From assembly GCA_000092065.1 (NCBI GenBank), contig CP000583.1: DNA of 64,000 bases; one strand, given 5' to 3'. The stretch's first letter is position 1, and the number at the start of each line of letters is the position of its first letter. The translations under genes and the position numbers were made by a program. Below the pieces are notes generated by a model that was not told the origin of the DNA, did not search any database, and worked only from the letters and a program-made list of their open reading frames with translations. The DNA comes from Ostreococcus lucimarinus (taxonomy: Eukaryota). Of this stretch, positions 1,533 through 64,000 are shown piece after piece.

Positions 1533-2858
1533 ATGGCGACGCGCGTCGCCGGCGCACCGCGCCCGCGCGTCGTCGCGCGCGCGTCGCGACGCGCGACCGT
1601 CGCGCGTTCGAGCGACGGCGCGTTCGACTGCGCGCACTGGCCGCGGTGCGCGGGATGCGTCGACGTCGACGCGCCGCTGCGACCCGAGGCGGAGGCGCGC
1701 GCGCGCGCGTACTTTGCGTCGCTGGACGCGCGCGCGGGCGAGACGGGCGAGACGCGCGAGACGCACGAGACGTATCGCGGACGCGCGACGCGATGGCGCG
1801 TCAAGGCGAAGCTCGCGGCGCGCGCGCACGAGGGCGAGACGCGACTGGGGCTGTTCGCGCGAGGCTCGCACGCGCTGGAGCCCATCGACGACGCGAGCGG
1901 GTGCGCGGTGTCGGCGATCGCGGTCGAAAGAGCGATGGCGCTGGTGCGAGAGGTGTGCGCGTCGATGGATGTGAAAGGGTACGACGAAACGACGGGGAAC
2001 GGGGAGCTGCGGTACGCGCAAATCGTGGCGCAGACGAGAACGGCGGGACAGTGGGACGCGGCGAAGGACGAAGACGCGCGAGCGGCGATTTCGTTGGTGT
2101 GGAACGCGCGGAAGATGACGCCGCGCGCGATGGCGGTGTGCGAGGAAATCGCGCGAAGGGGTGGAGATTTCGTGCACGGGACGTGGGTGAACGCGCAAGA
2201 CGCGCGAAATAACGTGATTTTTAACAACGACGGGTGGCACCACGCGACGGGCGAGCGAGAAACGCACTCGTACACGCCCAACGGTGCCAAGGTGTTTTAT
2301 CTGCCGGGAAGCTTCATGCAAGCCAACGCGGAGGCGTACGGAGAGTTGCTCAAGCGCATGCCGCGACACGTGCCGAAGAACGCGCGCGTCGTCGAGATGT
2401 ACGCCGGCGTCGGCGCCATTGGTTTTTCGCTTCTGACGAACGACGCGCTCGGCGTGAAGAGCTTGCGATGCGTGGAATCGTCGAGCGCGGTCGCCGAAGC
2501 GTGGGAACGCACGCGTGGCGAGTTACCAGAAGATTTGCGAGGTCGAGCAAGTTTGCAAGTCGAAAAGGCGGAGCGCATCGCCGTCGAATCGACGAAGGAT
2601 TGCGACGTTCTCATCGTCGACCCGCCTCGAAAGGGACTCGACGCCAAGCTGCGCGCCGTGCTCACCGACGTCGATGGTCTGAGCGATGACTTGCAAACTT
2701 TGCTTTACGTGTCGTGCGGATTTGAATCATTCATGCGCGACTCGGACGAGTTATTGGCGAGCGGCGTGTGGCAAATCCGTCATCACGAGAGCTTCGTGTT
2801 CTTCCCAGGCACGAATCACATCGAAATCTTTGCCGTGTTTTCGCGCACGCCTTATTAG
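1533..2858 (+). CDS. RumA/TrmA-family RNA (uracil-5)-methyltransferase with N-terminal Fe-S cysteine cluster
   Basis: ATG at 1533. CxxxxxxCxxC (DCAHWPRCAGC) as in RumA, then a SAM-MTase core: FMQANAEAYGELL, VEMYAGVGAIGFSL, LIVDPPRKG, YVSCGFESF. N-terminal R-rich presequence. Confidence 0.85.
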   Translation: MATRVAGAPRPRVVARASRRATVARSSDGAFDCAHWPRCAGCVDVDAPLRPEAEARARAYFASLDARAGETGETRETHETYRGRATRWRVKAKLAARAHEGETRLGLFARGSHALEPIDDASGCAVSAIAVERAMALVREVCASMDVKGYDETTGNGELRYAQIVAQTRTAGQWDAAKDEDARAAISLVWNARKMTPRAMAVCEEIARRGGDFVHGTWVNAQDARNNVIFNNDGWHHATGERETHSYTPNGAKVFYLPGSFMQANAEAYGELLKRMPRHVPKNARVVEMYAGVGAIGFSLLTNDALGVKSLRCVESSSAVAEAWERTRGELPEDLRGRASLQVEKAERIAVESTKDCDVLIVDPPRKGLDAKLRAVLTDVDGLSDDLQTLLYVSCGFESFMRDSDELLASGVWQIRHHESFVFFPGTNHIEIFAVFSRTPY

Positions 2859-2918: not shown

Positions 2919-4166
2919 TTACTCCTCCTTCCTTGGGGGAAGAATGAATATGTTTGAGTGCATCCCGAGACATCCCGTGACTTGCGCGCAAAGCGTCGCG
3001 CTTCGGTGAAGCAACAAAAATAACGCGGCGCCGAGGAGGATGCCGCCGATGAACATGTTGCCCGCGGGCACAAATGTCGTCATGATCATGATGAACCCGC
3101 TCAACCAGTTGAACAGCGGCCAATCGGGGTCTGAAACGCGCAGGCGCATGATGCTCATCTCGGCTTCGGCGAAGAGAAGCATGCTCGTGGCGTGCGCCAA
3201 CGCCAAGTTTGGCGCAAAATACAAGCACACGCCGTGAAACAACTCGTTGACGATGCAAAACAACGCAATACGCGTCGGATTACGATGCTTTGGCCAGTGT
3301 GGTGGCACTTCTTTTGCCGTGACGGTGCGATAAAACGTCATCGCGCGAGATCGCACGCCGAACAACGCCCCGCCGTCGACGAGCAGGCGCACCACGCCTC
3401 GCTCGCCGATGATGGGTAGAGTGATCGTAAACGCATTCATCGCGTCGCTCCCAACGAATCCGAAGACAATCATACTTATTTGCAACAGGATCTGCATCTC
3501 TTGCACGTCAAAAGCGGTGTTCACAGGTAACAATCCCGTGTACGTGCTCGAAACCGTGTCGACGGCGAAAAAAATCCGGCTCGACGTCATCATCATCACC
3601 GCGAACGCTCTCGCCGCGGGCGTCGCGATACCGACGGCCAATAAATCAACGAAAATAATCCCGTACACGCACGTGCAAATCGCATCGCATCCGTGATCGA
3701 CGACTTCTCCCAACGGCGACCCGCTCTTCGTTCGTCTCGCTTGCTTACCGTCGATGCCGTCCGCCGTCTGATACGCAAACATTAAAACAGCGCTCACCGC
3801 GTACATCCACGACGGCGCGGTGTGCGCCAGCACTGGCGTGTGCGTCCAATACAACGCGTACGTCACCATCACCAACATTAATCCGCCGAACGTCAACGCG
3901 TTCGGCGCCACCCACAGCGGACACCACCGTTCGACGACGTACGTCCACCATCGCTCCAAAAACAGCTTCTCAAACGACGTCGACGGCGGTGATGTATACT
4001 TGTACGAGTGCACCTGCGCGCACGTGCGCTCGGACGCGCCCACGTGCGCGCGTTTCGCTTCGCGCTCATTTTTTTGGGCGTAGCACACCAAGTCCTCGTT
4101 CGACCCATCGTGTCCACCGCGCGTCAGCACATCGAGGCGCGCGCGTCGAACGGCGGCGATCGGCAT
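2919..4166 (-). CDS. CDP-alcohol phosphotransferase (choline/ethanolamine phosphotransferase, AAPT/CEPT-like)
   Basis: ATG at 4164-4166. Canonical CDP-alcohol phosphatidyltransferase motif DGIDGKQARRTKSGSPLGEVVDHGCDA (DG..AR....G..LD...D), with multiple transmembrane segments before and after. Confidence 0.85.
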   Translation of the reverse strand: MPIAAVRRARLDVLTRGGHDGSNEDLVCYAQKNEREAKRAHVGASERTCAQVHSYKYTSPPSTSFEKLFLERWWTYVVERWCPLWVAPNALTFGGLMLVMVTYALYWTHTPVLAHTAPSWMYAVSAVLMFAYQTADGIDGKQARRTKSGSPLGEVVDHGCDAICTCVYGIIFVDLLAVGIATPAARAFAVMMMTSSRIFFAVDTVSSTYTGLLPVNTAFDVQEMQILLQISMIVFGFVGSDAMNAFTITLPIIGERGVVRLLVDGGALFGVRSRAMTFYRTVTAKEVPPHWPKHRNPTRIALFCIVNELFHGVCLYFAPNLALAHATSMLLFAEAEMSIMRLRVSDPDWPLFNWLSGFIMIMTTFVPAGNMFIGGILLGAALFLLLHRSATLCAQVTGCLGMHSNIFILPPRKEE

Positions 4167-4330
4167 CGCGGCGGCTTTCGATCTTCGCGTCCGCGTCGCT
4201 TCGGGTCCGCGCGCGCGACGTCGGCGTCGTCTTCTGCCGTCGCGTTCGGCGGGACTCTCGTCGTTCCAGTGTCAACGAGATCTCATCGCGCGCCCTTCGT
4301 CCTCTGCGCGCGAATCCGGGACGCGGCGCG

Positions 4331-6244
4331 ATGGCAGGCGGTGTTGCGGTGGCGTCGGGAGAGATCCGGCACGGCGATAGGGTCTTCAGTGGGAACTCTG
4401 GCCCCGCGCAGCGCGAACAACCCATAAACAAAGAACTCATCGCGCACTTCAAAAGCAAGGGAGACAGTGTGTCCTGGGGCATCGCTGCAAGCATAGAGAA
4501 CTACGAGGAGGATACGAAGAGGCCAGTGTTGTCGGGCGCATGCATCGCGTCGCTCTACGACCAAGAGACCGAGCGCGAGTTGGCAGAGGAGGTGGAGAAC
4601 AGAATTGAGCGGGTGCTAAGCGACGACGCAGCCTTGTTGAAAATACGTCGATATTTGAAGACCTTCCACGCGGACGAGCGCGAATGGGATGTGAGAACGT
4701 GTGCAGCGGCGGCTCGAGGGGGCAACTTGGAGTGTTTGAAATATCTGCACGAGCACGGGTGCGCGTGGGATAAGAGTGCGTGTGAAGCGGCGGCTCAAGG
4801 TGACCACTTGGAGTGTTTGAAATATCTGCATGCGAACGGGTGCACATGCGATGAGAGTGCGTGTTTAGCAGCGGCTGAAGGTGGTCACTTGGAGTGTTTG
4901 AAATATCTGCACGAGCACGGGTACCCATGGAGTGAGTGGGTGAGTTTAGCAGCGGCCGAAGGCGGTCACTTGGAGTGTTTGAAATATCTGCACGAGCACG
5001 GGTGCGTATGGAATAAGAAAACGTGTCGAGCAGCGGCTCGAGGTGGCGACTTGGAGTGTTTGAAATATCTGCACGAGCACGGGTGCGCGTGGGATGAGAG
5101 TGCGTGTGAAGCGGCGGCTCGATGTGGTCATTTGGAGTGTTTGAAATATCTGCATGAGCACGGGTGCCCGTGCGATGAGAGTGCGTGTGAAGCGGCGGCT
5201 AGCTGTGGCGACTTGGAGTTTTTGAAAGACCTGCACGAGCACGGGTGCCCATGGGATGAGAGTGCGTGTGAAGCGGCGGCTCTAGGTGGTCACTTGGAGT
5301 GTTTGAAATATCTGCACGAGCACGGGTGCGTATGGAATAAGAAAACGTGTCGAGCAGCGGCTCGAGGTGGCGACTTGGAGTGTTTGAAATATCTGCACGA
5401 GCACGGGTGCGCGTGGGATAAGAGTGCGTGTTCTGCAGCGGCTGGACGCGGTCACTTGGAGTGTTTGAAATATCTGCACGAGCACGGGTACCCATGGAGT
5501 GAGTGGGTGAGTTTAGCAGCGGCCGAAGGCGGTCACTTGGAGTGTTTGAAATATCTGCACGAGCACGGGTGCGTATGGAATAAGAAAACGTGTCGAGCAG
5601 CGGCTCGAGGTGGCGACTTGGAGTGTTTGAAATATCTGCACGAGCACGGGTGCCCGTGCGATGAGAGTGCGTGTGAAGCGGCGGCTAGCTGTGGCGACTT
5701 GGAGTTTTTGAAAGACCTGCACGAGCACGGGTGCCCATGGGATGAGAGTGCGTGTGAAGCGGCGGCTCTAGGTGGTCACTTGGAGTGTTTGAAATATCTG
5801 CACGAGCACGGGTGCGTATGGAATAAGAAAACGTGTCGAGCAGCGGCTCGAGGTGGCGACTTGGAGTGTTTGAAATATCTGCACGAGCACGGGTGCCCGT
5901 GCGATGAGAGTGCGTGTGAAGCGGCGGCTAGCTGTGGCGACTTGGAGTGTTTGAAATATCTGCGCGAGCACGGGTGCCCGTGCGATGAGAGTGCGTGTGA
6001 AGCGGCGGCTCTAGGTGGTCACTTGGAGTTTTTGAAAGACCTGCATGAGCACGGGTGCGCATGGGATAAGAGTGCGTGTTCTGCAGCGGCTCGAGGTGGT
6101 CACTCGGAGTGCTTGAAGTACTTGCACACGCACGGGTGCCCCGGGAATAAGCGTGCGTCTGAAGCGGCGGCTGGAGGTGACGTCATGGAGTGTTTGAGTT
6201 TGAAGTACTTGCATAGATCGCTCAAACGAAAGATTTACAGGTAG
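4331..6244 (+). CDS. ankyrin-repeat protein with ~16 near-identical 33-aa repeats (HLECLKYLHEHGC[PAV]W[DN][EK]S.C.AAA.GG)
   Basis: The track ORF starts at 3989 with a non-ATG start inside the convergent CEPT gene; the first ATG is at 4331 (MAGGVAVASGE...). A unique ~125-aa N-terminus is followed by 33-aa ankyrin-like repeats encoded by 99-bp tandem units. Third-codon-position GC is only ~55%, against ~80% in neighbouring genes. Confidence 0.8.
   Translation: MAGGVAVASGEIRHGDRVFSGNSGPAQREQPINKELIAHFKSKGDSVSWGIAASIENYEEDTKRPVLSGACIASLYDQETERELAEEVENRIERVLSDDAALLKIRRYLKTFHADEREWDVRTCAAAARGGNLECLKYLHEHGCAWDKSACEAAAQGDHLECLKYLHANGCTCDESACLAAAEGGHLECLKYLHEHGYPWSEWVSLAAAEGGHLECLKYLHEHGCVWNKKTCRAAARGGDLECLKYLHEHGCAWDESACEAAARCGHLECLKYLHEHGCPCDESACEAAASCGDLEFLKDLHEHGCPWDESACEAAALGGHLECLKYLHEHGCVWNKKTCRAAARGGDLECLKYLHEHGCAWDKSACSAAAGRGHLECLKYLHEHGYPWSEWVSLAAAEGGHLECLKYLHEHGCVWNKKTCRAAARGGDLECLKYLHEHGCPCDESACEAAASCGDLEFLKDLHEHGCPWDESACEAAALGGHLECLKYLHEHGCVWNKKTCRAAARGGDLECLKYLHEHGCPCDESACEAAASCGDLECLKYLREHGCPCDESACEAAALGGHLEFLKDLHEHGCAWDKSACSAAARGGHSECLKYLHTHGCPGNKRASEAAAGGDVMECLSLKYLHRSLKRKIYR
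4700..6190. repeat. tandem array of ~99-bp units (about 15 copies, with near-identical higher-order ~300-550 bp blocks) inside the ankyrin CDS
   Basis: ggtcacttggagtgtttgaaatatctgcacgagcacgggtgc... recurs every 99 bp. Blocks around 4949-5240 are repeated almost exactly around 5489-5780. The short minus-strand ORFs (MLVQIFQTLQV...) here are repeat artefacts. Confidence 0.9.
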
Positions 6245-6267
6245 CGGAAAAATTACGCGAATTGAAA

Positions 6268-7593
6268 TCAAATACCTACGAAATCGGCGTACGCCGGACA
6301 GAGCCTACGACAGTGGCGAAATAAACGCATCGCTTCCATGGCGTCGCCCGAGGTCTCCGCGTCCACGGCGCGCTTGTGCAGGGCGTACGCCTCGGCGCCG
6401 ACGGCGTCGGCGAACGCCGGCGGCTCGCGAGCGTACATGACGTCGGTGCGAATGATGAATTTCACCGCGCCCTCGCCCACGGGCGCGCCCTCGTGCGGAA
6501 TGTCTTGTCGAAACACCAGAGCAGTGCCTCGCGCGCACGGCGCGGCGTCGGCGATCCATTCATCCGGCCAACGGTATCGATCGTCCTCGTCGCGCACGAA
6601 TTTCGACGGCTCAAAGTCGCTCGGCGGCGCGAACATCGACGTCTCCCCACCTCGCGCGCAATCGTTCAGGTACACCAAGACGCTATAAAACGAACGCGTA
6701 TTGAAATCTTCGATCGTCGCCCCGTCGGTGTGCGGTGAAAAGTGCCCGCGTCCAGAGTATCGATTAAACAACAAGTGTTCGTTCACGCCTCGCGCCACCC
6801 ATCGTCCGCGCGCCCCCGCGCCGTGCGTCTCATCCTCCTCAATCGTGATCTCCGGCGTCGCGTGCGGTTTCAATCGCGCCCACAGCGCTTCCGCGACCGT
6901 CTTCGACATCACCTCCACCGTATCCGCGTTCCTGAACGATTTTCTATTCCTCGCCTCCGCGTCCTCGTGCCAAAAGCTCAACCGTCCCGACCGCCGCGCG
7001 GCGTCCACCAGCCTTTCGCACTCCGTCGCCGTCAGCACGTCCCGCGCGACGAACGCATCGAGCGGGCTCGCGCACCTTCGCGCGCTCGTCGTCGCTTCGT
7101 CACCGCGTCGCTCGACCGCGTCGTCGAACGGTTTCGCGTCTTCGGCGCACGCCTTCTCCACGGGCGTCACCGCGCTCTTATCGACGTCCACGAACGCGCG
7201 CGACATCGCCTCGACGACGGCGTCGACGACGGTCGCGTCGCCGCCGCCGTCGTCGCCGCCGCGCGCGTCGACGCTCGACCGTTCGGTCGACCGTTCGCGG
7301 CGCGGCGCGGCGAGCTGTGCGGCACTGTCGAGCGCGATGGAACGCGTCGCGCGCGCGTCGTCGCGCGCGGCGACGGTCGGGGCGTCGCGTGCGGGGACGG
7401 GGAACGCGCGCGCGACGACGGCGTCGCGCGGCGCGCGCGCGACGACGGCGCGGCGCGCGCCGGCGGCGGCGTTTCTTTCGTCGGTGTCTCGAAAGTGTCG
7501 TCGCGGAAGGACGACGACGACGGGAGCGCTGGCGATTCCGGACACCGCGTTCACGGTGGCGACGATGGCGGTGATGCCGATGTACGCGCTCAT
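6268..7593 (-). CDS. 2-oxoglutarate/Fe(II)-dependent oxygenase (prolyl 4-hydroxylase-like)
   Basis: His-x-Asp...His iron triad and 2OG-binding basic residue: HFSPHTDGATIED, IPHEGAPVGEGAVKFIIRTDVMY. The true start may be the internal ATG at ~7203 (MSRAFVDVDKS...), which would remove the overlap with the divergent ABA4-like gene. Confidence 0.7.
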   Translation of the reverse strand: MSAYIGITAIVATVNAVSGIASAPVVVVLPRRHFRDTDERNAAAGARRAVVARAPRDAVVARAFPVPARDAPTVAARDDARATRSIALDSAAQLAAPRRERSTERSSVDARGGDDGGGDATVVDAVVEAMSRAFVDVDKSAVTPVEKACAEDAKPFDDAVERRGDEATTSARRCASPLDAFVARDVLTATECERLVDAARRSGRLSFWHEDAEARNRKSFRNADTVEVMSKTVAEALWARLKPHATPEITIEEDETHGAGARGRWVARGVNEHLLFNRYSGRGHFSPHTDGATIEDFNTRSFYSVLVYLNDCARGGETSMFAPPSDFEPSKFVRDEDDRYRWPDEWIADAAPCARGTALVFRQDIPHEGAPVGEGAVKFIIRTDVMYAREPPAFADAVGAEAYALHKRAVDAETSGDAMEAMRLFRHCRRLCPAYADFVGI

Positions 7594-8104: not shown

Positions 8105-9625
8105 TTATTGCGCCTCCTCCGTAGCCTTGCGCTTGTTTGCCGCCGGCACGTTGATTTTGAACAACCCGGGATTAGCGGCGTGCGAGCTCTCGCCAGATTT
8201 GAAGTCTGCTTTCGCCGCCTTGACGAGCGCGTTGACGCGAGCGATGTAGTCGGGGATGCTAAACTTCTTCTTTGTGCTGTCGTACGCCATGTATCGAATC
8301 TTGCCGAAAACTTCGCGTTCTTTCCAACCTTGATCGTGCACGCCCACGATGGACCACATGCATCCGACGTAGCCGCTCGGATCGCGACCATCCAGCGAGT
8401 ACGTGTCGTTCAAATAAATTGCAAACTTCAACGCTTGCTCGGGCGACTCGGTCCACTCGAGAATCTTCTTCGCCCAATACATTCGACAAAAGCCGTGCAT
8501 CTTACCTCCATAACGCAACTCTCGCTGGGCGGCGTTCCACAGATCGTCGTGCGTCTTCGCCCGCTCGAGTTCTTCGAGCGAGTACAAGTACGGACGCTTG
8601 TCACTCGCATGCAGGCGAAGCGTGTCCTTGGCCCAGTCGTACTTTTGTCCCTCAATCTGATCGTACTTCGGGCTGTAGTAGCAAAAGTTGTCGGACAACT
8701 CTCGACGAACGACGAGCTCTTCGAAGAACGACTCATACGCGGGCGGCGACGCCTTTCCGACGGCTTTCTTTGCCTCGAGCGCGCATCGCTGACCAGAAAT
8801 CTGCCCAAAGTGCAGCCAAGGCGACAGCCCGCTCAGCGCCTGCGGCTTGGATGGATCGTTGCGCTTCTCGTACAACTTCATGCGTGAGTTCACAAAGTCG
8901 TCCAAAACAGCGTGCGCCGCGGTTTCGCCCGGGATCGCCCACGTCACTTCCGGCACCGCTTGCCCGCGCGACAGCGCCTCGGCGATGATGTCGTCCCACT
9001 TCACCGCGTCGAGCGCCGGGCCGCTGTACTTGGGCAAATCATCCGGCACTTCCGGGAATTCGTGCAAGAACTCCGGGTAACGCTTCGCCAAGCGCCCTCG
9101 AAGCGTCCGCGCGCCGACTTCGAGCTTGTCGCTCGCTTCCCAGCACGGCACTACGTTGTGCGCGTCGCATTCCTCGCAGTGCGCCGAGCGCGCCTCGCAC
9201 AATGCCGCCAGTTCTTTCCGCCATTTCAACCCATCGCGAAGCGGCGAAAAGTCGCACACGATCGTTTTCGCACCAATCTTCTTGGCCAGCGCATCGATCG
9301 CGATCGCTGGCTCATCCCCGTACGTCATCGCGAACGTCACGTTTTTCGCCTTCGCCGCGCCCTCCAGCTCGCGAAGTCCACGCAGCATGAACCCGAACTG
9401 TCGCGCCCCCGCGCCGAGGAACTTTGTCAGCAGATTAAACGCGATCACCACCGGCGCGTCGTTCGCGCGCGCGACGTCGCACGCGCGCAGCAGCGCCCAG
9501 TTATCTCGCACGCGTTGGTCCCTGGACAGCCAGTACACGACTGGCGCGTTCGGTCCCGCCTCGGGCTTCGTCCCGCGCGTCAGCGCGCGATAGCGCTTCT
9601 TCGACGCGCACAACGCCGACGGCAT
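8105..9625 (-). CDS. class II CPD DNA photolyase
   Basis: The track's M1 is GTG; the ATG is at 9623-9625 (MPSALCASKKRY). Class II hallmark VVYWLSRDQRVRDNWAL, FAD-binding C-terminal domain (GKMHGFCRMYWAKKILEW, YVGCMWSI). Confidence 0.9.
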   Translation of the reverse strand: MPSALCASKKRYRALTRGTKPEAGPNAPVVYWLSRDQRVRDNWALLRACDVARANDAPVVIAFNLLTKFLGAGARQFGFMLRGLRELEGAAKAKNVTFAMTYGDEPAIAIDALAKKIGAKTIVCDFSPLRDGLKWRKELAALCEARSAHCEECDAHNVVPCWEASDKLEVGARTLRGRLAKRYPEFLHEFPEVPDDLPKYSGPALDAVKWDDIIAEALSRGQAVPEVTWAIPGETAAHAVLDDFVNSRMKLYEKRNDPSKPQALSGLSPWLHFGQISGQRCALEAKKAVGKASPPAYESFFEELVVRRELSDNFCYYSPKYDQIEGQKYDWAKDTLRLHASDKRPYLYSLEELERAKTHDDLWNAAQRELRYGGKMHGFCRMYWAKKILEWTESPEQALKFAIYLNDTYSLDGRDPSGYVGCMWSIVGVHDQGWKEREVFGKIRYMAYDSTKKKFSIPDYIARVNALVKAAKADFKSGESSHAANPGLFKINVPAANKRKATEEAQ

Positions 9626-11689: not shown

Positions 11690-13285
11690 TCACGTGTGAA
11701 GCTCGACCGCGATCTGCTCCAATGACTTGCCTTTTGTCTCCACGACGTATGCTTGAGTGAAAAAGAACCCAAACATCGAAAACGCCGCGAAAAACATGTA
11801 CACGACGCTAGCGCCGAAGTACTCCACCGCCGGTAAAAATCCCTGTCCAATGCAGAAGTTGAAGATCCAGTGCGCGAGAAAGCACAAAGACATCCCCTTC
11901 CCGCGCACGGCCGGAGCGAAAATCTCCGAAGATAGCAGACCCGGAACTGGACCGGCGCCCATGCCGAAGATGAAGACGTACGAGAGGACGGAAAACAGCG
12001 ACAGCGCGGGCGCCATGACCATCGCTGGAAACGCGCCCGCGATGGCCAAACCGACGCAACTTACCGCCATACCGAGGAAAGAGTACATGAGAAGCGGTTT
12101 ACGACCCGTTTTATCGAGTAAACCGGTAGCGATGACGCTGCCTACGATGTTCACCACGCACACCGCGACGGAGGCGAGTACGCCAGATTCGATCCCGGCG
12201 CTTTGGAAGATGGCCGTGCTGAAGTAGATGATGGCGTTGATGCCGGCAAATTGTTGAATGAAGAACAGCATCGGCCCCGTAATCACGGCTCGACGATTCG
12301 AGCGCCCTTGCAGAGTCTCTTGCCACGTCGCCACCTTGGTCGATCCCATGTCGTCGGCGCGCTTCGGCGCCACGGCTCCGAATTGCTTAGACTCCACCGC
12401 GTCCGCCTCTTGAAAGTGCCCTTTGGAGCGCAACCACGACGGACTTTCCGGGATTCCGTTCGCGAGCGTCGCGAGCGCGACCGCGGGAACGGTGGCGAGC
12501 CAGAACATCGTGCGCCACCACGCGGGATCGACGTCGACGCCTTGCAAAGGCAAACCGAGAAACATGGCGACCAAAATCCCAAATCCGATGGACAGTTGCG
12601 GCCCCGATCCCAGCACCCCACGGTGCTCGGGCGGACTCAGTTCGCTCACGTACATGGGCACCAAAATCGACACCAATCCGACGCCCACGCCCACGATCGC
12701 GCGTCCGGCGAGCATCGTCCGCAGCGTCGTCGCCGCCGCGCACGCCGCGCTTCCCAGCGCCAGCGCGACGCCCGCCAGCGCCAGCGACTTTTTCCGTCCA
12801 AATTTATCCGCCGACGCCCCCGCGGCGAACGACCCGAACGCCGCGCCCATGAGCATGCTCGACACCACCGCTCCTTTCGCCGCGACGTCTCGCGCGATGC
12901 CGATATCGCTCGCCAGCGCCTCCAGCGCCGGATTCACGACGCCGCAGTGATACCCAAACGAAAACGCCCCGAGTGCGGCGACGGCGACCGGGAACGCCGC
13001 GCGCCGCAGCGCCTGCGACGCGCTCAGCGGTTTCGCGAGCAATCCATCGCCATCGCGCGCGTCCTCGTCGCGCGTCGCGCGCGCGCGCGGCATCGCACCG
13101 CGCGTCCCGCGGACCGACGCGTTCGCGCGCGCGTCGCTCGAGTTCGCGCGCGGCGCGATGCGCATGCGCGACGCGCGCGCGCGCGCGACGACGGGACGCG
13201 AGACGCGCGCGCGATGCCGCGATCGGCGCGCGCGCGCGTCGACGCGCGCGCGCGACGACGACGCCGCCGACGACGACGCGCGCAT
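11690..13285 (-). CDS. MFS sugar porter (plastidic glucose/hexose transporter-like)
   Basis: 12-TM MFS with sugar-porter signatures (GRKKSLALAGVAL, VPMYVSELSPPEHRG, FQQFAGINAIIYFST) and a long R/A/S-rich N-terminus. ATG at 13283-13285; internal ATGs at ~13165 and ~13093 are alternatives. Confidence 0.85.
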   Translation of the reverse strand: MRASSSAASSSRARVDARARRSRHRARVSRPVVARARASRMRIAPRANSSDARANASVRGTRGAMPRARATRDEDARDGDGLLAKPLSASQALRRAAFPVAVAALGAFSFGYHCGVVNPALEALASDIGIARDVAAKGAVVSSMLMGAAFGSFAAGASADKFGRKKSLALAGVALALGSAACAAATTLRTMLAGRAIVGVGVGLVSILVPMYVSELSPPEHRGVLGSGPQLSIGFGILVAMFLGLPLQGVDVDPAWWRTMFWLATVPAVALATLANGIPESPSWLRSKGHFQEADAVESKQFGAVAPKRADDMGSTKVATWQETLQGRSNRRAVITGPMLFFIQQFAGINAIIYFSTAIFQSAGIESGVLASVAVCVVNIVGSVIATGLLDKTGRKPLLMYSFLGMAVSCVGLAIAGAFPAMVMAPALSLFSVLSYVFIFGMGAGPVPGLLSSEIFAPAVRGKGMSLCFLAHWIFNFCIGQGFLPAVEYFGASVVYMFFAAFSMFGFFFTQAYVVETKGKSLEQIAVELHT

Positions 13286-13328
13286 AGTGCGGATCGACGC
13301 TCAAAAGGCGACGCGCGAAACCGGCGAC

Positions 13329-13933
13329 ATGTGGCGTCGCGTCGCGCGCGACGTCGCGAGACGCGCGTCGACGTCGTGCGCGACGTCGTCGTCCGCGCGC
13401 GCGACGGGCGCGACGCGGGGCGTGAGCGCGACGGCGACGTCGAGGGCGAAGGCGAAGGCGAAGGCGAAGGCGAAGGGTAAAGGTGCGTCGAGCGCGGACC
13501 GACGCGCGAGGACGCGCGCGAAGACGCGAGGACGCGCGCGAGGACGCGCGGGATGACGCGCGGGATGACGCGCGCGACGCGCGACTGACGGAGCGACGGC
13601 GGTGTCGAACGACGCGCAGACGGTGAGAAGGCGCAGACGGCGGCGAGCGGCGGCGGCGGCGCGGCGAGCGACACGAAAGTCGTAGGGTTGAATTACTTGA
13701 AAACGGGAAGTGATCCGGAACTCGGGAGCGATGATGCGTATCCGGCGTGGTTGTGGACGCTGTCGGAGGCGAAGGAAAGTTTGGGAGGGTACGAGCGGAG
13801 GATCGCGGCGTTGAAGGCGGAGGGCTTGGATTGGCGCGCAGAGTTTTCGGAGGAGGACGCGAAACGGTATCGGAAACTCGAACGGACGCATCGGATCAGG
13901 GAAAATAACGCGTCGCGCGCGAAGAAATAGCAA
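13329..13933 (+). CDS. MRPL54: mitochondrial ribosomal protein mL54 (two exons: 13329..13482 and 13620..13933)
   Basis: Exon 2 encodes YPAWLWTLSEAKESLGGYERRIAALKAEGLDWRAEFSEEDAKRYRKLERTHRIRENN (mL54 motif YPEWLF...R.YWR.LR). It is not preceded by an in-frame ATG; there is an in-frame TGA at 13586. Exon 1 (MWRRVARDVARRAST...KAKAKGK, mitochondrial presequence) ends with donor GTGCGT at 13483. Branch CTGAC lies 33 nt upstream of acceptor CGCGCAG at 13619. The phase-1 junction recreates an Asp codon. Confidence 0.7.
13483..13619 (+). other. spliceosomal intron (137 nt) of the mL54 gene
   Basis: GTGCGT...CTGAC...CGCGCAG. The interior is built from degenerate GACGCGCG(A/G)G tandem motifs. Confidence 0.65.
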
Positions 13934-38396: not shown

Positions 38397-40934
38397 ATGA
38401 CGAGCGATGGCGCCGCGCCGACGACGCCGAACGAAGACGAGCTCGCGCTCCGCGAACCTCTCGTCGGTGGAGCGACCGCGATCGAGTCGGGGTACGACAG
38501 CGACGTCGACGTTCCCGCGGACGCCTCGGCGTCCGTGCCCGAGGCGAGAAGAGAGGAAGAACCGACGACACCAGCCACGCCACCGCGACGAGTGAACTTT
38601 CGAGGGTTCACCGCGCGCACGCAGTCGTTGTATCTCGGCACGGAACGAACGTTGAGTACGCAAACGACGGATTCGGGCGCCCCGGAGGACGCGGTGGAGA
38701 GTTTGGATTTTGCCGACGTCGATTCCCATTGGGCGCGGCGCGCGCGCGGACGCGGCGTCTTCTCCAAAGTTTCGGCGAAGTGGATCGTGGCGGCGTTCAT
38801 CGGTGTCGGTGTCGGTACGATTGCGTTTCTCATCGATGTCTCGGTGCTCTATGCATACCGAGGTCGCGGGAAGCTGTTCGAAGTGTGTCGCCGACGCGTC
38901 CATCTGGCGTTGGCGATGTTTGCGTACGGCGGTGTCGGCGTCGCACTCGCCGCGATCGCTGGGGCTCTCACGACGTACGTCGCGCCGCGAGCCAAGGGTG
39001 CAGGGGTGCACTACGTCATGGCAATGTTGAACGGAATATACATTCCGAAAGCGTTCGATGCGTCGACGCTTTGGGTTAAAGCTGTAGCCACGATCGCTGC
39101 GGTATCGTCAGGACTTATGATCGGTCCGGAAGGGCCATTGGTACATGTGGGCGCTGCTATTGCGATGCAATTTACGCACGGAGCGTCTTCTGGTATGGCG
39201 GACCTCTTTCAATCGGACCTCGACCGCTCTGACTTCATATCCGCGGGCGCTGCGGCCGGGATCGCCGCCGCGTTTGGCGCGCCCATCGGCGGGGTATTGT
39301 TTTCGTTGGAGGAAGCGAGCACGTTTTGGAGAGAGAGCACGACGCGCCGCGCGCTGTTTTCGGCGAGCATCGCCACTTTTGTCCTCGCACTGGCTCGCGC
39401 GGTGTTTCTGGAAGGATCGGCGGCTTCAGAACATACGCAAATGAAAAATCCTGGCTTGCTTCGTGTGGGCGATTTCGATTCGACGTACTTTTTGATAGAG
39501 CTGCCGTTCTACGCCGCCCTCGCCGGCACGTGCGGTGTGATCTCAGGCATCGTGACAAAGTCAATCATCTTTGTGTCCACCAACTACACCCCGCAGCGAA
39601 ACGAACGTCGGCTTGCGCAAGTCGTTCTTGTCTCCCTGGCGTGCGTCGTAATGTTTTTCGGCGTCGCCGCCGCAGGAAAGTGCGTGACAGAGACCCCCGG
39701 TGAAGTGTCGAGATGGAGTGAAGCGTCGATACGATTGTGGTGCGCCGAAGGTGAATACGCGGACTTGGGTTCGATTCTACTGGGCAACAAAAACGATGTC
39801 ATCGCCTGGGTCCTCGGGTCGCCGGCAAAGGCGCACACTTTACACGCGTTGCTACTATCTTTCGCGACGACGCTCATCTCTCTGATCATGGCTGCGAACC
39901 TTTTCGTACCCGCTGGGCTGTTCATGCCCACAATTCTGTGGGGTTCGTTGCTCGGGCGAGCGGCGGCAATCGTCGTCGAGCACTCTTTGAGCCCGCTCGG
40001 CGATTTACGCGTGAATCCACACGCGTACGCGCTCGTCGGCGCCACCGCCGCGCTTGCTGGCACGTTTCGAGCCACGATTTCCGTCGTAATCATCGTGTTA
40101 GAGGGCGTCGGGAAGAGTGCGTTTCTATTCCCGCTCCTCATCGCCGTTGCGGGCGCAAATTTGGCGTCGCGACTATTTGGGGCGAGTCTTTACGAGGAAC
40201 AACTCGTGCGCTCGAAGATTCCATTTTTGCACGCCAAGCCGCCGAAAGCGCTCCTGGACGACTCCATCACAGCCTTCGATGTGTGCGCGCGCGACGTCGT
40301 CGCTTTCAAGGCGATCGAAAAAGTGAGTGCGATCGAAGAAGCTTTGGCCCAAACGACGCACAACGGATTCCCGATTCTCAGCGCGAAAGGCAAACGCGTC
40401 ATCGGCGTCATCCTTCGCAAGCAACTGCTCGTGCTCTTATCTCGCCGAGCGTTCGTGGAGAATCTCGTCCACGCGCCCGTGTTGAACTCATCAGCCATGG
40501 AAGAAGGTCACGACGACGACTCCGTGCTCGGCGGCCGAACGCCCGACGACGTCGTTTCGCTTCGCGTCGCCGAGTATTGCGCCGAGCTCACCAGAGTCAT
40601 GCGAGGCTTCCATCATCGTTCGAGCAGTTCTCGTCACGGTCGTCGCGCTGAGTCTTCCATCATCGCTCGACTCGGTCTCACCGACGTCGAGCGCGAGCGT
40701 CGTTGCGATCTGGGCGTCTTCATGGCGTTATCTCCCGCCTCCATCGCCGCCGACGCGCGCGCGAGAGACGCGTACGTCCTCTTCACTCGTCTCAGTCTTC
40801 GCCATCTGTGCGTCGTCGACGCCGCCACCGGCGCCATTCGCGGCATCATCACTCGTCACGATTTGTTCGACGCCGCGGAATCTGTCGATCGCTCGCTTCA
40901 TCACTCCGTTTCGTCTTCTTCGATTTTGTTGTAA
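38397..40934 (+). CDS. CLC-family voltage-gated chloride channel / H+-Cl- exchanger with C-terminal CBS domains
   Basis: ATG at 38397. Selectivity-filter motifs GPEGPLVHVGAAIA (GxEGP) and GAPIGGVLFSLEE. About 10-12 TM. C-terminal CBS pair (HNGFPILSAKGKRVIGVILRKQL; HLCVVDAATGAIRGIITRHDL). Confidence 0.9.
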   Translation: MTSDGAAPTTPNEDELALREPLVGGATAIESGYDSDVDVPADASASVPEARREEEPTTPATPPRRVNFRGFTARTQSLYLGTERTLSTQTTDSGAPEDAVESLDFADVDSHWARRARGRGVFSKVSAKWIVAAFIGVGVGTIAFLIDVSVLYAYRGRGKLFEVCRRRVHLALAMFAYGGVGVALAAIAGALTTYVAPRAKGAGVHYVMAMLNGIYIPKAFDASTLWVKAVATIAAVSSGLMIGPEGPLVHVGAAIAMQFTHGASSGMADLFQSDLDRSDFISAGAAAGIAAAFGAPIGGVLFSLEEASTFWRESTTRRALFSASIATFVLALARAVFLEGSAASEHTQMKNPGLLRVGDFDSTYFLIELPFYAALAGTCGVISGIVTKSIIFVSTNYTPQRNERRLAQVVLVSLACVVMFFGVAAAGKCVTETPGEVSRWSEASIRLWCAEGEYADLGSILLGNKNDVIAWVLGSPAKAHTLHALLLSFATTLISLIMAANLFVPAGLFMPTILWGSLLGRAAAIVVEHSLSPLGDLRVNPHAYALVGATAALAGTFRATISVVIIVLEGVGKSAFLFPLLIAVAGANLASRLFGASLYEEQLVRSKIPFLHAKPPKALLDDSITAFDVCARDVVAFKAIEKVSAIEEALAQTTHNGFPILSAKGKRVIGVILRKQLLVLLSRRAFVENLVHAPVLNSSAMEEGHDDDSVLGGRTPDDVVSLRVAEYCAELTRVMRGFHHRSSSSRHGRRAESSIIARLGLTDVERERRCDLGVFMALSPASIAADARARDAYVLFTRLSLRHLCVVDAATGAIRGIITRHDLFDAAESVDRSLHHSVSSSSILL

Positions 40935-40991
40935 CTCCCGATCGCTCGCTTCATCACTCCGTTTCGTCTTCTTCGATTTTGTTGTAACTCC
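40886..40991. repeat. perfect 53-bp tandem duplication spanning the CLC stop codon
   Basis: cgatcgctcgcttcatcactccgtttcgtcttcttcgattttgttgtaactcc x2. The first copy encodes the last 15 codons plus the TAA stop of the CLC gene; the second copy lies in the 3' UTR. Confidence 0.9.
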
Positions 40992-43066: not shown

Positions 43067-43116
43067 GGCGACTGTACATACAATTGTTTACATTTCGCGC
43101 CCTATTGCGTCACCGC

Positions 43117-43230
43117 CCAGTTACGTCGATATTAGCGTTTTCGTCGCGTCATCGATCCAAGATCCGGTTTTTAACACCACCCAGTTACGTCGATATTAGC
43201 GTTTTCGTCGCGTCATCGATCCAAGATCCG
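43117..43230. repeat. two 50-bp direct repeats (14-bp spacer) at the 3' ends of the convergent SET genes
   Basis: ccagttacgtcgatattagcgttttcgtcgcgtcatcgatccaagatccg at 43117-43166 and 43181-43230. The second copy contains the last 12 codons and stop (WIDDATKTLIST*) of the minus-strand SET gene. Confidence 0.85.
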
Positions 43231-44750
43231 TTTTTGAGCAGACTTTCTTCCGTGAGCACGCCTTGGACGGCCGCAAAAGTGCTCTTCGCTCCGGTACGAA
43301 GACGCTTCGCCGTGCGGAAACGCGCCGCGAACTCGCCGCCGACGGCTTCAGCCGTTCGCTCGAGCTCGGCAATCTCCGCGTCCGTGGCACCACAGACGAA
43401 TGCTTCCACTTGAGTAAGCAACCACGCGACGTATCGTCCCGCTCGCCGACGCGTTTCCGGCTTGAAACTAAACAACGAGCCGTCACCGCCGCCGTTCGAT
43501 GCGATCACCGCGGACGCGGCGACGGCGACGACTTCGTCCGCGTCGCAACACATGAGACCAGCGATACCACCGAGCACTTTTGGATTCCCTCGCATCGTGA
43601 GCACGAACGATAGTTCCTCGCCCTCGTTTAAGCCCAAAGCGCCGCACCGCTCGAGGAGTCTGCGTCTCAGCGCGGCGGTTTCTTCTCTATCTTCCTTCGC
43701 TACGGCGTTCAATCCGTTCGCGAACACAGTGTCTGGTAAGTTGAAAACGACCGAGCAATCGCCGTGCGACGGCGTCGAAGGTACGAATCCGTACCACAAC
43801 CACATTTCCTCATTCGACAGTTCGCCGTACGTCCAGCGCAAAGCTTGACCTTTCGCTACGTCGCGTGTCGTCTTCCAAATAGATTCGCCGACGTCATTCG
43901 ATTCGATGCTGACATTCGGCCCGTCGTCGCTGTCGTCGCTCGTGCTCGTGGGCGAGTGATTGAGCACGTCGCAAACGGGTACGAGACATCGCTTACGCTC
44001 GATGACGTCCGTTCCAGACTTTTTCACCGCGAACGTAATCGCTCGACTGCGCACCATAGACCACGCCCAAGCGAATTCGAGATCCTCCAACGCCGGCTCG
44101 TCGCTCATTTTAGCGACAATCTGTCTCGCGTCGGCGCATGACATCGCAAATTCTCGTCGCGCCGCGTCCACCTGGTCGACGAAGTGGAGCGAGAGCATCG
44201 GCACAAGCGCTTCCAACGATTCGTCCTCGTACAGCGCGGGCGTGTCCGCCGCCTCTTTCGGGAGCGACAACGCGTACGCCCCCAAAGCCGAACGTTCGGG
44301 ATATCGTTTCGCAAAAACCAACATGAGTGCCATCGGGACGTCATCGCTCACGAGTCTTTGTACTTCGCCTTCGTACGCAGAAATCGCCGCGTTTGCGCCG
44401 AAAGCGTCGTCGCTCCGCGCGTACGTGGCGTCGAACGCCGTCGACGACAGCGCGCGCGTCATGATGGGCGTGTCGGCCGGGATGTGGACTTTTGCCACGA
44501 CGCCGCACACGCCTTCTTCGCTCTCGACGCCCCCGATGTCGACTAAATCGTCGCGCGTTCGCGTCCCGTCTCCCGCCGCCGCCTCGCACAGACGAACGAA
44601 TCGCGCACCGTCGTCGACGGTCGCGTGCGCGCGCGCGCGACGCGCGCGAGGAGACGTCGACGCAAACGAAGATGAACTCGCACGTCGCGCGTCGTTCGCG
44701 ACGCGCACGACGTCGCGCGCGAGAGAGGTCGTCGCGAACGCCACAGCCAT
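43185..44750 (-). CDS. SET-domain protein-lysine methyltransferase (Rubisco LSMT/SETD3-like), paralogue of the upstream convergent gene
   Basis: ATG at 44748-44750. CLVPVCDVLNHS, QALRWTYGELSNEEMWLWYGFV, and a C-terminal helical domain. Confidence 0.8.
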   Translation of the reverse strand: MAVAFATTSLARDVVRVANDARRASSSSFASTSPRARRARAHATVDDGARFVRLCEAAAGDGTRTRDDLVDIGGVESEEGVCGVVAKVHIPADTPIMTRALSSTAFDATYARSDDAFGANAAISAYEGEVQRLVSDDVPMALMLVFAKRYPERSALGAYALSLPKEAADTPALYEDESLEALVPMLSLHFVDQVDAARREFAMSCADARQIVAKMSDEPALEDLEFAWAWSMVRSRAITFAVKKSGTDVIERKRCLVPVCDVLNHSPTSTSDDSDDGPNVSIESNDVGESIWKTTRDVAKGQALRWTYGELSNEEMWLWYGFVPSTPSHGDCSVVFNLPDTVFANGLNAVAKEDREETAALRRRLLERCGALGLNEGEELSFVLTMRGNPKVLGGIAGLMCCDADEVVAVAASAVIASNGGGDGSLFSFKPETRRRAGRYVAWLLTQVEAFVCGATDAEIAELERTAEAVGGEFAARFRTAKRLRTGAKSTFAAVQGVLTEESLLKNGSWIDDATKTLIST

Positions 44751-63327: not shown

Positions 63328-63790
63328 ACTAGCCATACGAGGACGTCGACTTCGTTGTATCGACCTAGAATTAAAAAACGCTAAACGTGTGTGCTGCTCG
63401 GCGTTTCTTCGCGGCGGCTTCATCGAGAGCGACTTGCGTCAAGCGTACGTGTTTGTGAGCGCACGCGCACGAGCGACGCACGCGAGAATATGCGCCGCGC
63501 ATGCGCGCGAATGTTTGTACGCGAAGCGAGGCGCGCGATTCCTCGGTTCATAAAGGATCCTCCGCAGGCTTTCCACTCAAATCGACTGTGTGTCACGCAA
63601 GACGAGTGCTTGGGGTCTCATTATTTTCACAGAGGACAAACTACGACTGGTCGTTTGTCGCCCAACACGACCACTGAAGAAGGAACTTTGACGCAAGAGT
63701 CCGGCGACGTCCGGAGCGTCGAGGGGGAAGTCTGCGGTGCCGTGCTGGTCGACGAGTGATGGCCGTAGGGTGTCGTGAAGGTGCCCAGGG

Positions 63791-64000
63791 TTTAGGGTTT
63801 AGGGTTTAGGGTTTAGGGTTTAGGGTTTAGGGTTTAGGGTTTAGGGTTTAGGGTTTAGGGTTTAGGGTTTAGGGTTTAGGGTTTAGGGTTTAGGGTTTAG
63901 GGTTTAGGGTTTAGGGTTTAGGGTTTAGGGTTTAGGGTTTAGGGTTTAGGGTTTAGGGTTTAGGGTTTAGGGTTTAGGGTTTAGGGTTTAGGGTTTAGGG
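63791..64000 (+). repeat. telomere: (TTTAGGG)n, ~30 units, G-rich strand 5'->3' toward the window end (right chromosome end)
   Basis: Perfect TTTAGGG tandem array from ~63791 to the end of the window, preceded by a degenerate unit (cccaggg). Plant/green-algal type telomere repeat. Confidence 0.95.

Follow-up and report, generated by a model that had tools for sequence, protein, structure and literature searches.

A recombining gene of 27-residue ankyrin repeats on a probably acquired 2-kb cassette in Ostreococcus lucimarinus

Positions 4331-6244 of the 64,000-nucleotide stretch of Ostreococcus lucimarinus DNA that was analysed here (contig CP000583.1 of assembly GCA_000092065.1; hereafter the window) are a real protein-coding gene, made of an orphan N-terminal module, 18-19 short repeats of the ankyrin type and a basic tail. 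We can probably understand it as a member of a Mamiellales ankyrin family, acquired horizontally or ectopically and evolving by unequal recombination. A 2-kb cassette would have been inserted between two conserved genes after the split from the sister species, its source being perhaps a young multi-copy gene family found in other genomes of Mamiellophyceae-like type, where GC is 52-55%. The array would then have changed by unequal recombination, slippage and gene conversion among its 81-bp units, giving the alleles of 9 to about 19 units that are met in natural populations.

Repeat anatomy and fold

The gene is organized as follows, the N-terminal module preceding the array of short ankyrin repeats and the basic tail closing the coding sequence.

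4331-6244, + strand: complete coding sequence of 637 amino acids plus stop (open reading frame list and translation; Pfam ankyrin families above their cut-offs)
4331-4621, + strand: orphan N-terminal module, amino acids 1-97, mostly helical (no Pfam match; alignment A2 with relatives)
4622-4684, + strand: degenerate N-terminal capping repeat, amino acids 98-118, DDAALLKIRRYLKTFHADERE (aligns with the first repeat of relatives)
4685-6142, + strand: 18 in-register short-ankyrin units of 81 bp, 27 amino acids each (TRF, autocorrelation), consensus WDESACEAAARGGHLECLKYLHEHGCP
6143-6244, + strand: degenerate unit 19 and basic tail, GNKRASEAAAGGDVMECLSLKYLHRSLKRKIYR followed by the stop
5156-5410 (units 7-9), identical to 5642-5896 (units 13-15), + strand: longest exact internal repeat, 255 bp, offset 486 bp (mismatch matrix)
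4883-5086 (units 4-5), identical to 5450-5653 (units 11-12), + strand: second exact internal repeat, 204 bp, offset 567 bp (mismatch matrix)

The tandem array, placed by TRF at 4684-6197 with a score of 1813 that is the highest of the window by a wide margin, has a period of 81 bp, and its autocorrelation peaks at 81, 162 and further multiples up to 567. A preliminary description had counted some 16 repeats of 33 residues on a 99-bp period; both figures have to be replaced, as there are 18 regular units of 27 residues, a degenerate nineteenth and a degenerate N-terminal cap. It had also seen higher-order blocks that are almost base-identical. Such blocks do exist, with lengths of 255, 204, 175 and 132 bp, but the pair that had been singled out (4949-5240 against 5489-5780, an offset of 540) is out of register and 21% identical, the true offsets being 567 and 486 bp. 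Recent internal amplification, or concerted evolution, was rightly proposed: units are identical, and exact repeats extend up to 255 bp. A 6-bp duplication of GTTTGA lies at 6191-6202, in the region of the tail. The 'terminators' returned by a bacterial-type promoter and terminator scan proved to be a repeated piece of the unit, and such a scan is irrelevant to a eukaryote.

The ankyrin character of the repeats, recognized from the start, is established by Pfam (Ank_4 at 9.7e-60 and 197.7 bits for a cut-off of 22.7, Ank_2 at 2.5e-52 and 175.8 bits for a cut-off of 27.3, with the Ank_5, Ank and Ank_3 profiles also matched over threshold) and by HMMER alignments with DARPins, which open a gap of 6 residues in each repeat. 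Structure prediction points the same way. In the AF2 model the array (pLDDT >90) is predicted to form, for every 27 residues, a helix of 9-10 residues, a turn and a helix of 9. DSSP assigns to this model no strand in the array and a 6-residue loop between repeats, while the capping repeat would be the end of a long helix entering the solenoid. The best Foldseek matches of the model are DARPins, espin and ankyrin-1/B (E from about 1e-9 to 1e-10, TM 0.44-0.55). Two antiparallel helices per repeat, stacked as a solenoid, are thus what the prediction, as opposed to a solved structure, displays.

When compared with canonical ankyrins (Pfam clan Ank: PF00023, PF12796, PF13637; DARPins), the array has the same signature of turn and outer helix, GGHLE-x-L-K-x-L, and, in the model, the same stacked helix-turn-helix solenoid with variation on the face made by inner helix and loop. 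In contrast, the repeat of about 33 residues, the beta-hairpin or finger loop and the TPLH motif are all missing: the unit has 27 residues instead of 33, the hairpin finger is reduced to a 6-residue loop in a strandless model, TPLH gives way to (S/T)AC-x-AAA, and Cys or His occupy the framework positions C6, C17, H22, H24 and C26. No description of an ankyrin class of 27 residues came up in the literature that was searched. That a Cys/His-rich ankyrin variant is abundant both in protists and in giant viruses, as the preliminary description had it, holds for this period, which recurs in Pandoravirus-sized genomes, in giant-virus MAGs and in proteins of Cymbomonas, Balamuthia and Seminavis.

Within each unit the inner helix reads ...ACEAAARGG and the outer helix HLECLKYLHEHGC. 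The positions that vary from unit to unit (2-5, 7, 11, 12, 14 and 27) belong to the loop and the inner helix, the outer helix being invariant. Because this is the usual binding face of ankyrins, the gene product is likely to act as a protein-binding scaffold. The N-terminal module is of a different nature. It belongs to no known Pfam family, and among 1.84 billion representatives it has only 24 matches, each 65-79% identical. Its AF2 model is of low confidence (pLDDT 65.6, pTM 0.29), too low for a fold search, which was ruled out for that reason. No other copy of the module, of the repeats or of the PSF3 gene considered below was found within the 64-kb window, and an exact-protein look-up of the 637-residue reading and of a 750-residue one returned no record.

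Empty sites, alleles and PSF3 fusions

The limits of the cassette are given by genomes that lack it, and its surroundings are the following.

4246-6255, + strand: inserted cassette of 2,010 bp, comprising the 5' flank, the coding sequence and 11 bp of 3' sequence
4246-4330, + strand: conserved non-coding DNA of the cassette 5' of the coding sequence, a putative promoter or 5' UTR (62 of 85 positions identical to the copy on contig L055; alignable to that on contig L064)
4225-4245, + strand: CGTCGTCTTCTGCCGTCGCGT, 21 bp abutting the left junction, of which haplotype B has a second copy at its right end
2919-4166, - strand: left neighbour, a CDP-alcohol phosphatidyltransferase gene (Pfam PF01066; orthologues; exact matches on many metagenome contigs)
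6268-7593, - strand: right neighbour, a 2OG-Fe(II) oxygenase gene (Pfam PF13640)

In three independent assemblies of conspecific origin (L006, L009 and L063) the site is empty, window position 4245 being joined to 6256 through a 53-bp filler. The two neighbours serve as synteny anchors, the phosphatidyltransferase gene being divergent from the ankyrin gene and the oxygenase stop codon lying some 12 bp from the right junction of the cassette. Syntenic orthologues in sister species, which the preliminary description named as possible counter-evidence, are missing from two sister genomes, where the site is empty: on chromosome 3 of O. tauri the gene order is fully retained, the anchors lying 110 bp apart with no ankyrin gene, and a second Ostreococcus-like genome has 197 bp between the same two genes and no cassette. 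As a test for an ancestral empty site, the filler was compared with the intergenic DNA of the sister species, from which it is too diverged to align. The locus belongs to an ordinary chromosome arm and is some 58 kb away from a telomere. Around the cassette, a search for terminal inverted repeats gave only chance matches of 12-13 nt. The window junctions carry no target-site duplication, 53 bp having been replaced instead, and the 21-bp direct repeat is present in haplotype B only. Neither transposase nor integrase was found in the cassette or beside it.

The conspecific genomes differ widely at this place. There are alleles with 9 units (L004, L011), 11 units (L061) and 13 units (L010 and L012, two distinct alleles with units absent from the window), all of them in frame, as well as an allele of about 19 units on a 956-kb contig (L003), an array-less one on a 962-kb contig (L008) and a decayed one (L007). 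Haplotypes B, D and E carry fusions with PSF3, a GINS subunit. In D and E the body of the PSF3 gene stands in place of 6188-6196, and E brings along 185 bp of downstream DNA from the other PSF3 locus. Related PSF3 genes are flanked by a HAD hydrolase gene on one side and a LON-substrate-binding-domain gene on the other, and the copy at the ankyrin locus shares only 74% identity with the abundant PSF3 type, present on 144 contigs. In view of this other genomic context, of the level of identity and of the 185 bp in haplotype E, we rejected as unlikely the idea that this copy is the native PSF3 of the species. A JGI metagenome scan with a 32-mer of the right flank retrieved 3 loci only, too few for haplotype frequencies. 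Hypervariable minisatellite-like coding arrays likewise have identical units, higher-order blocks and in-frame alleles that differ by whole units; here, however, the whole gene is also polymorphic for presence and absence, and the array recombines with the unrelated PSF3.

One might object that the length and order of the window array are products of assembly (expansion, collapse or chimera) and the allele diversity mere assembler noise. The risk, already pointed out in the preliminary description, is a real one. With their 132-255 bp, the exact internal repeats are longer than the usual k-mers, several contigs (L002, L005, L013-L016) end inside the array or hold 100-N gaps there, array lengths differ between assemblies, and many shortened protein variants appear in clusters. 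As short-read assemblies with k = 127-141 must collapse such repeats, some of the short alleles may be artefacts, and the L003 array bears the frameshifts and uneven spacing of units that uncorrected long reads typically produce. We nevertheless find this explanation unlikely for the locus as a whole. The array of the independent 956-kb contig measures 1,934 bp as against 1,925 bp in the window. L010, L012 and L061 have units that are missing from the window array, and so are not collapses of it. Finally, no collapse can yield an empty site, an array-less allele or PSF3 fusions, each of which recurs in independent samples.

Since natural genomes of the same species have empty, array-less, decayed or PSF3-fused versions of the locus, the gene appears to be dispensable, and frequent null alleles fit a functionless gene equally well. 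It might then be the decaying remnant of a selfish repeated element, with an open reading frame that is only incidental. The common null alleles, whether empty, array-less or stop-containing, would agree with this, as would the raised dN/dS of the N-terminal module (0.37-0.77, against 0.19-0.32 for the neighbours) and the occurrence, in contig L059, of module and 5' flank together at scattered places ahead of unrelated genes. This fate seems to us rather improbable, because the frame of 1,914 bp is intact in the window, as are those of the 9-, 11- and 13-unit alleles, because the outer helix and the structural positions are strictly conserved with variation clustering on the predicted binding face, and because dN/dS is still below 1.

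Relatives, base composition and the proposed acquisition

The N-terminal module and the 5' flank are 80-85% identical at the DNA level to copies in algal genomes of very different base composition, whereas intergenic DNA does not align at all between Ostreococcus species. Homology to the copies of L064 and L055 runs from about 4253 to the stop codon, matching the edges of the cassette; with L064 the alignment begins 7 bp inside the left junction and has 80% nucleotide identity along 881 bp. The dS of the N-terminal module between copies (0.42, 0.36 and 0.105) is to be compared with 0.80-1.16 for orthologues within Ostreococcus. Ordinary cellular genes (HAT1, OTU, RPS4e) surround the closest relatives, whose contigs measure 0.5-1.7 Mb. 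Assigning L064 to Micromonas was considered and rejected, the GC3 of the neighbouring genes (0.78-0.83) being Ostreococcus-like. The cross-lineage argument would be weaker if L055, L059 and L064 were low-GC outlier regions of close relatives; however, a contig of 1.74 Mb is longer than any Ostreococcus chromosome known from published assemblies. The direction and the vehicle of the transfer are inferred.

The preliminary description had envisaged a horizontal, possibly viral, origin. The empty sister sites, the empty conspecific haplotypes and the low dS argue for the foreign origin; a viral donor is not supported, no viral contig of IMG/VR bearing the N-terminal module. Direct capture of a gene from a giant virus or a prasinovirus, during infection of the host, would account for a compositional outlier that is also a lineage-specific insertion. 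Giant-virus expansions, in Pandoravirus-sized genomes and in MAGs where this type of repeat abounds, display the same 27-residue unit, ...GHL(D/E)CLKYAHE(H/N)GCPW(D/N)E.TC..AA.., in long arrays, and one relative, P0173 of L055, adjoins a D5-like helicase (DUF5906, 2e-14), a weak GIY-YIG match and a Peptidase_S74-like fibre protein. Yet the viral search, which was made on IMG/VR, gave as its best ankyrin matches sequences of 28-58% identity, confined to the repeats. The N-terminal module, used as a profile against the same collection, retrieved nothing, and the cellular company of the closest relatives argues against such a capture as well. A direct viral origin is therefore not supported, and we hold it to be improbable.

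Base composition was what first drew attention to the gene. With a GC3 of 0.62 (0.60 in the repeats, 0.72 in the N-terminal part), it does have the lowest value among 33 genes, and also the lowest CAI (0.574, the minimum of the neighbours being 0.595). The contrast is nevertheless smaller than the 55% against 80% initially estimated, as the 32 neighbouring open reading frames have a mean GC3 of 0.741 (sd 0.043, range 0.655-0.817). Furthermore, the array is effectively one sample of 27 codons copied 18 times, so that the contrast mostly reflects a single unit, whose consensus has a GC3 of 0.593, a value equalled or undercut in 13.8% of the 27-codon windows of the neighbours. Relaxation of an expression-linked codon bias, proposed at the outset, need not be invoked, for a low GC3 is common to the family, 20 of the 27 third positions in the consensus unit being those of a relative whose unit has a GC3 of 0.56. 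The cassette of L064 also has a GC3 of 0.62, amidst its GC-rich neighbours, and in L055 and L059 cassette GC3 matches that of the surroundings (0.54-0.70). The dip probably has its cause in lower-GC codon choices of the source family, which the gene would have retained. That the gene is native, vertically inherited and lost in the sister species, its GC3 reflecting nothing but weak expression and repeat homogenization, is very unlikely in spite of the unremarkable composition of the single unit, of the ordinary GC3 of the N-terminal part and of the 17 family genes reported in O. lucimarinus (PMC3491373), because two sister genomes as well as conspecific haplotypes would have had to lose it, independently and precisely, because in its 5' flank and at synonymous sites the cassette is much closer to its copies in genomes of another composition (dS 0.1-0.4) than orthologues within Ostreococcus are to one another (0.8-1.2), and because the GC3 contrast recurs in L064.

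A family of picoeukaryote genes and its possible mobility

The proposed acquisition of a Mamiellales family member, followed by unequal recombination, connects the locus with earlier work. Moreau et al. (2012; PMC3491373) described a Mamiellales-specific ankyrin family, HOM000035 of pico-PLAZA, with 149 copies in Bathycoccus, 56 in Micromonas CCMP1545 (M. pusilla), 17 in O. lucimarinus and 6 in O. tauri, many members being flagged as probable horizontal transfers. Judging by its description, this family resembles the present gene, with ankyrin repeats at the C-terminus and an N-terminus that matches nothing in databases; the 27-residue period, the presence or absence in populations, the copy-number alleles and the PSF3 fusions do not figure in that paper. 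The locus may serve as a handle on this large ankyrin family, known since 2012.

More tentatively, the module and the short-ankyrin gene, together with some 80-230 bp of 5' flank, might make up a young and still mobile cassette, moving between Mamiellophyceae genomes of different genera and compositions and creating in-frame fusions or 5' replacements of host genes. A dS of 0.1 separates cassette copies that stand in a 53%-GC background and in a background of GC3 0.8, and fusions or 5' replacements involve PSF3 (both in the species of the window and in another genome) as well as HAT1 and an OTU protease (in L059). As no recognizable transposition machinery is present, a virus may perhaps be the carrier.

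There are practical consequences for annotation, as ankyrin variants of 27 residues are systematically mis-measured as having 33, and as short-read assemblies collapse arrays of this kind. Beyond this, natural populations have at least eight structurally different alleles (empty, array-less, decayed, arrays ranging from 9 to about 19 repeats, three fusions with PSF3) at one locus of 2 kb, in a genus whose genomes are among the most compact of eukaryotes. The structural hypervariability known in Ostreococcus has been associated with the small outlier chromosome and with virus resistance; the ankyrin locus, in contrast, sits on an ordinary chromosome arm. If the cassette is indeed mobile, it would drive variation in gene structure in the smallest free-living eukaryotes, outside the hypervariable 'outlier' chromosomes. 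If confirmed, the close kinship with DNA copies in compositionally different algal genomes would offer a concrete and easily genotyped case, among marine picoeukaryotes, in which to follow how genes are gained by transfer, how repeats diversify proteins and how genes fuse.

The 81-bp array and its predicted fold

An intact open reading frame on the + strand, from the ATG at 4331 to the TAG at 6242-6244, encodes 637 aa and contains what is by far the strongest repeat of the 64-kb window according to Tandem Repeats Finder (4684-6197, period 81 bp, 18.7 copies, score 1813). In self-comparison the peaks fall at 81 bp and at multiples of it, none at 99 bp, so that the period of 99 bp and 33 aa proposed in a preliminary description must be replaced by 81 bp and 27 aa, and its approximately 16 units by the following layout.

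Layout of the array (+ strand)
Immediately before unit 1: degenerate cap, in the 27-residue layout of the protein
4685-6142: 18 regular units of 27 residues each, consensus WDESACEAAARGGHLECLKYLHEHGCP
After the 18 regular units: degenerate unit 19, continuing into a basic tail (...GGDVMECLSLKYLHRSLKRKIYR)

Units 4 and 11, 5 and 9, 7 and 13, 8 and 14, and 12 and 15 are base-identical; the longest exact repeats within the array span 255 bp (offset 6 units) and 204 bp (7 units), followed by 175 bp (3 units) and 132 bp (4 units). These offsets displace the blocks 540 bp apart that had been reported, while the very recent internal amplification read from those blocks is borne out by the identical units and exact repeats. 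Unequal recombination together with gene conversion among units would account for the evolution of the array.

By Pfam profile the array belongs to the ankyrin clan, far over threshold (Ank_4 9.7e-60). An AlphaFold2 model of residues 1-361 gives the array pLDDT above 90 and no beta strands; every 27 residues form a helix (9-10), a turn, a second helix (9) and a loop of 6 residues. Structurally the model is most like DARPins, the espin ankyrin domain and ankyrin-1/B, and when the sequence is aligned to designed ankyrin proteins, each repeat shows a gap of 6 residues. The profile and the predicted fold are thus those of the family, as had been proposed, but the 33-residue length and the hairpin/TPLH features are not, and the array is, on this model, a short variant of the ankyrin repeat that lacks the hairpin finger. 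Proteins with the 27-residue unit are common, both among many protists (Cymbomonas, Balamuthia, Seminavis, numerous metagenomic proteins) and among giant viruses (Pandoravirus-sized genomes, giant-virus MAGs), a distribution that had been anticipated. The outer helix (LECLKYLHEHG) hardly varies among the 24 distinct units of six alleles, the variable positions (2-5, 7, 11, 12, 14, 27) falling in the loop and inner helix, the usual ankyrin binding face; the protein would be a scaffold for protein binding whose concave face varies. The N-terminal 97 residues, here the module, match no Pfam family and have a low-confidence predicted fold of helices. With only 24 relatives among 1.84 billion representative proteins, all 65-79% identical, this module is a young, narrow orphan.

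A probable insertion at a conserved site

Chromosome 3 of O. tauri fully keeps the gene order (MFS transporter, RPE65-like, photolyase, ABA4-like, 2OG oxygenase, CDP-alcohol transferase, two more genes, VPS13). The left neighbour, a CDP-alcohol phosphatidyltransferase, shares 70% identity with its O. tauri counterpart and 74-78% with those of two other relatives, so the window belongs to a different Ostreococcus species. Its exact protein occurs in 804 blocks of the collection, the source species being cosmopolitan in marine metagenomes. A syntenic orthologue in a sister species, which would tell against a foreign origin, was looked for: oxygenase and transferase lie 110 bp apart in O. tauri and 197 bp in a second species, and at neither site is there ankyrin or module sequence. 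As 30.6 perfect AGGGTTT copies (the TTTAGGG plant-type telomere repeat) occupy 63787-64000, up to the window end, the window is a chromosome end, with the ankyrin locus some 58 kb away. Other repeats of the window include two tandem duplications in or near intergenic DNA, one perfect (53 bp x2, 40886-40991) and one near-perfect (64 bp x2, 43111-43235), and GC-rich imperfect short tandem repeats of CGCGCG/GACGAC type (7362-7471, 1370-1607, 13145-13583) in N-terminal coding parts of neighbour genes, the 2OG oxygenase included.

The gene has the lowest GC3 (0.62 overall, 0.60 in the repeats, 0.72 in the N-terminal part) and the lowest codon-adaptation value (0.574; neighbour minimum 0.595) of 33 genes. 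An anomaly had been correctly perceived, with its contrast overstated: 32 neighbouring ORFs average 0.741 (sd 0.043, range 0.655-0.817). If the array is counted as a single sample of 27 codons, a GC3 as low as that of the consensus unit is found in 13.8% of the neighbours' windows of that length, and on its own the anomaly is weak; it is comparison that gives it weight. A relative in another genome has a unit of GC3 0.56, to which the consensus unit is identical at 64/81 bases and at 20/27 third positions, those of the TGT, TTG and AAA choices included. The repeat therefore brought its low GC3 with it, the dip not being of local making, and relaxed codon bias is not supported.

Relatives combining module and short ankyrin units are present in other genomes. 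The copy on contig L064 (GC3 0.62, neighbours 0.78-0.83) matches window 4253-5117, non-coding 5' flank included, at 80% DNA identity, its homology beginning 7 bp inside the left junction of the 2,010-bp cassette (4246-6255); similarity between cassette copies stops at the stop codon. On contigs L055 (1.74 Mb) and L059 (502 kb), with 52-55% GC, gene GC3 is 0.54-0.70, so that the cassette's composition matches its surroundings there. By the Nei-Gojobori method the module gives dS of 0.42 (window-L055), 0.36 (window-L064) and 0.105 (L055-L064), against 0.80-1.16 for flanking genes between Ostreococcus species; dN/dS is 0.37-0.77 against 0.19-0.32. These distances, with the empty syntenic sites, support a foreign origin. 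In L059 the module behaves like a dispersed 5' cassette, two copies with 5' flank lying head to head at 2376-2858 (-) and 3572-3862 (+), in frame into two unrelated genes, for an OTU protease and HAT1.

A viral donor is not supported: the module was found on no viral contig searched. The closest relative of the same architecture, P0173 (L055 45-9072), does have a virus-like neighbourhood, comprising a D5-like helicase (DUF5906), a weak GIY-YIG match, a Peptidase_S74-like fibre protein, an FG-GAP protein and a 'TELSGRIDTLNTTDDALK' tandem-repeat protein, and a viral vector is possible. Searches of the window copy for terminal inverted repeats, a target-site duplication or a transposase found none. 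Acquisition of the cassette from a lower-GC source would have proceeded by ectopic or horizontal transfer. In L056, 2-3 TTTAGGG telomere-type units (~1010-1035) directly 3' of an ankyrin relative hint at a subtelomeric or telomere-healing context.

By description, the gene fits a family that Moreau et al. (2012; PMC3491373) reported from Mamiellales, whose proteins have their ankyrin repeats at the C-terminal end and an N-terminus without matches. The family counts 149 copies in Bathycoccus, 56 in M. pusilla, 17 in O. lucimarinus and 6 in O. tauri, and many of its members are among the transfers predicted by those authors. The best-supported reading is a lineage-specific, recently inserted gene, apparently dispensable and belonging to a young ankyrin family of Mamiellophyceae.

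Alleles and PSF3 fusions

Within the species the locus is polymorphic in structure; its alleles were compared on contigs with flanks 98.7-99.9% identical.

Alleles at the locus
A, intact array: L004 and L011, 9 units; L061, 11 units; L010 and L012, 13 units each, mutually different, with units not in the window
A, ~19 units, frame broken by long-read-type indels: L003 (956-kb contig), 1,934 bp vs 1,925 bp in the window
Array-less: L008 (962-kb contig), window 4682 directly adjoining 6256
Decayed: L007, array with stop codons
C, empty: L006, L009, L063, a 53-bp filler replacing window 4246-6255
B: L001 4847-5836, module in frame with truncated PSF3; protein on 12 contigs
D: L017 5523-6636, PSF3 body exactly within unit 19, replacing 6188-6196
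E: L060 2859-3962, like D, plus PSF3's own C-terminal tail and 3' region, then more low-GC DNA

The assembly risk that had been flagged is real: contigs L002, L005 and L013-L016 end in the array or carry N-gaps there, and short-read collapse is to be expected because exact internal repeats exceed k = 127-141. Collapse cannot account for alleles with novel units, nor for empty, array-less and fusion alleles, which recur in independent samples.

PSF3 (GINS subunit 3, named from the JGI annotation of matching proteins) is at this locus only ~74% identical to the abundant type. Related PSF3 genes reside elsewhere, between a HAD hydrolase gene and a LON-substrate-binding-domain gene, and haplotype E includes 185 bp of downstream DNA from that locus; the same fusion partner recurs in P0177, a protein from another genome. 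At the HAD/LON locus, 2.4 kb from PSF3, L018 carries a small 198-aa gene of the 27-residue ankyrin type (9013-9609), on which ectopic exchange between the two loci might act. The low-GC DNA following the PSF3 segment of haplotype E (L060 4140-4852), with a 177-aa ORF matching no Pfam family, could reflect either a larger insertion or a chimera in the contig.

What is new is one more ankyrin protein of known type, to which hypervariability and cassette copies across genomes are added; it is from this population-level hypervariability, and from the near-identity of the cassette between genomes, that the locus draws its moderate interest.
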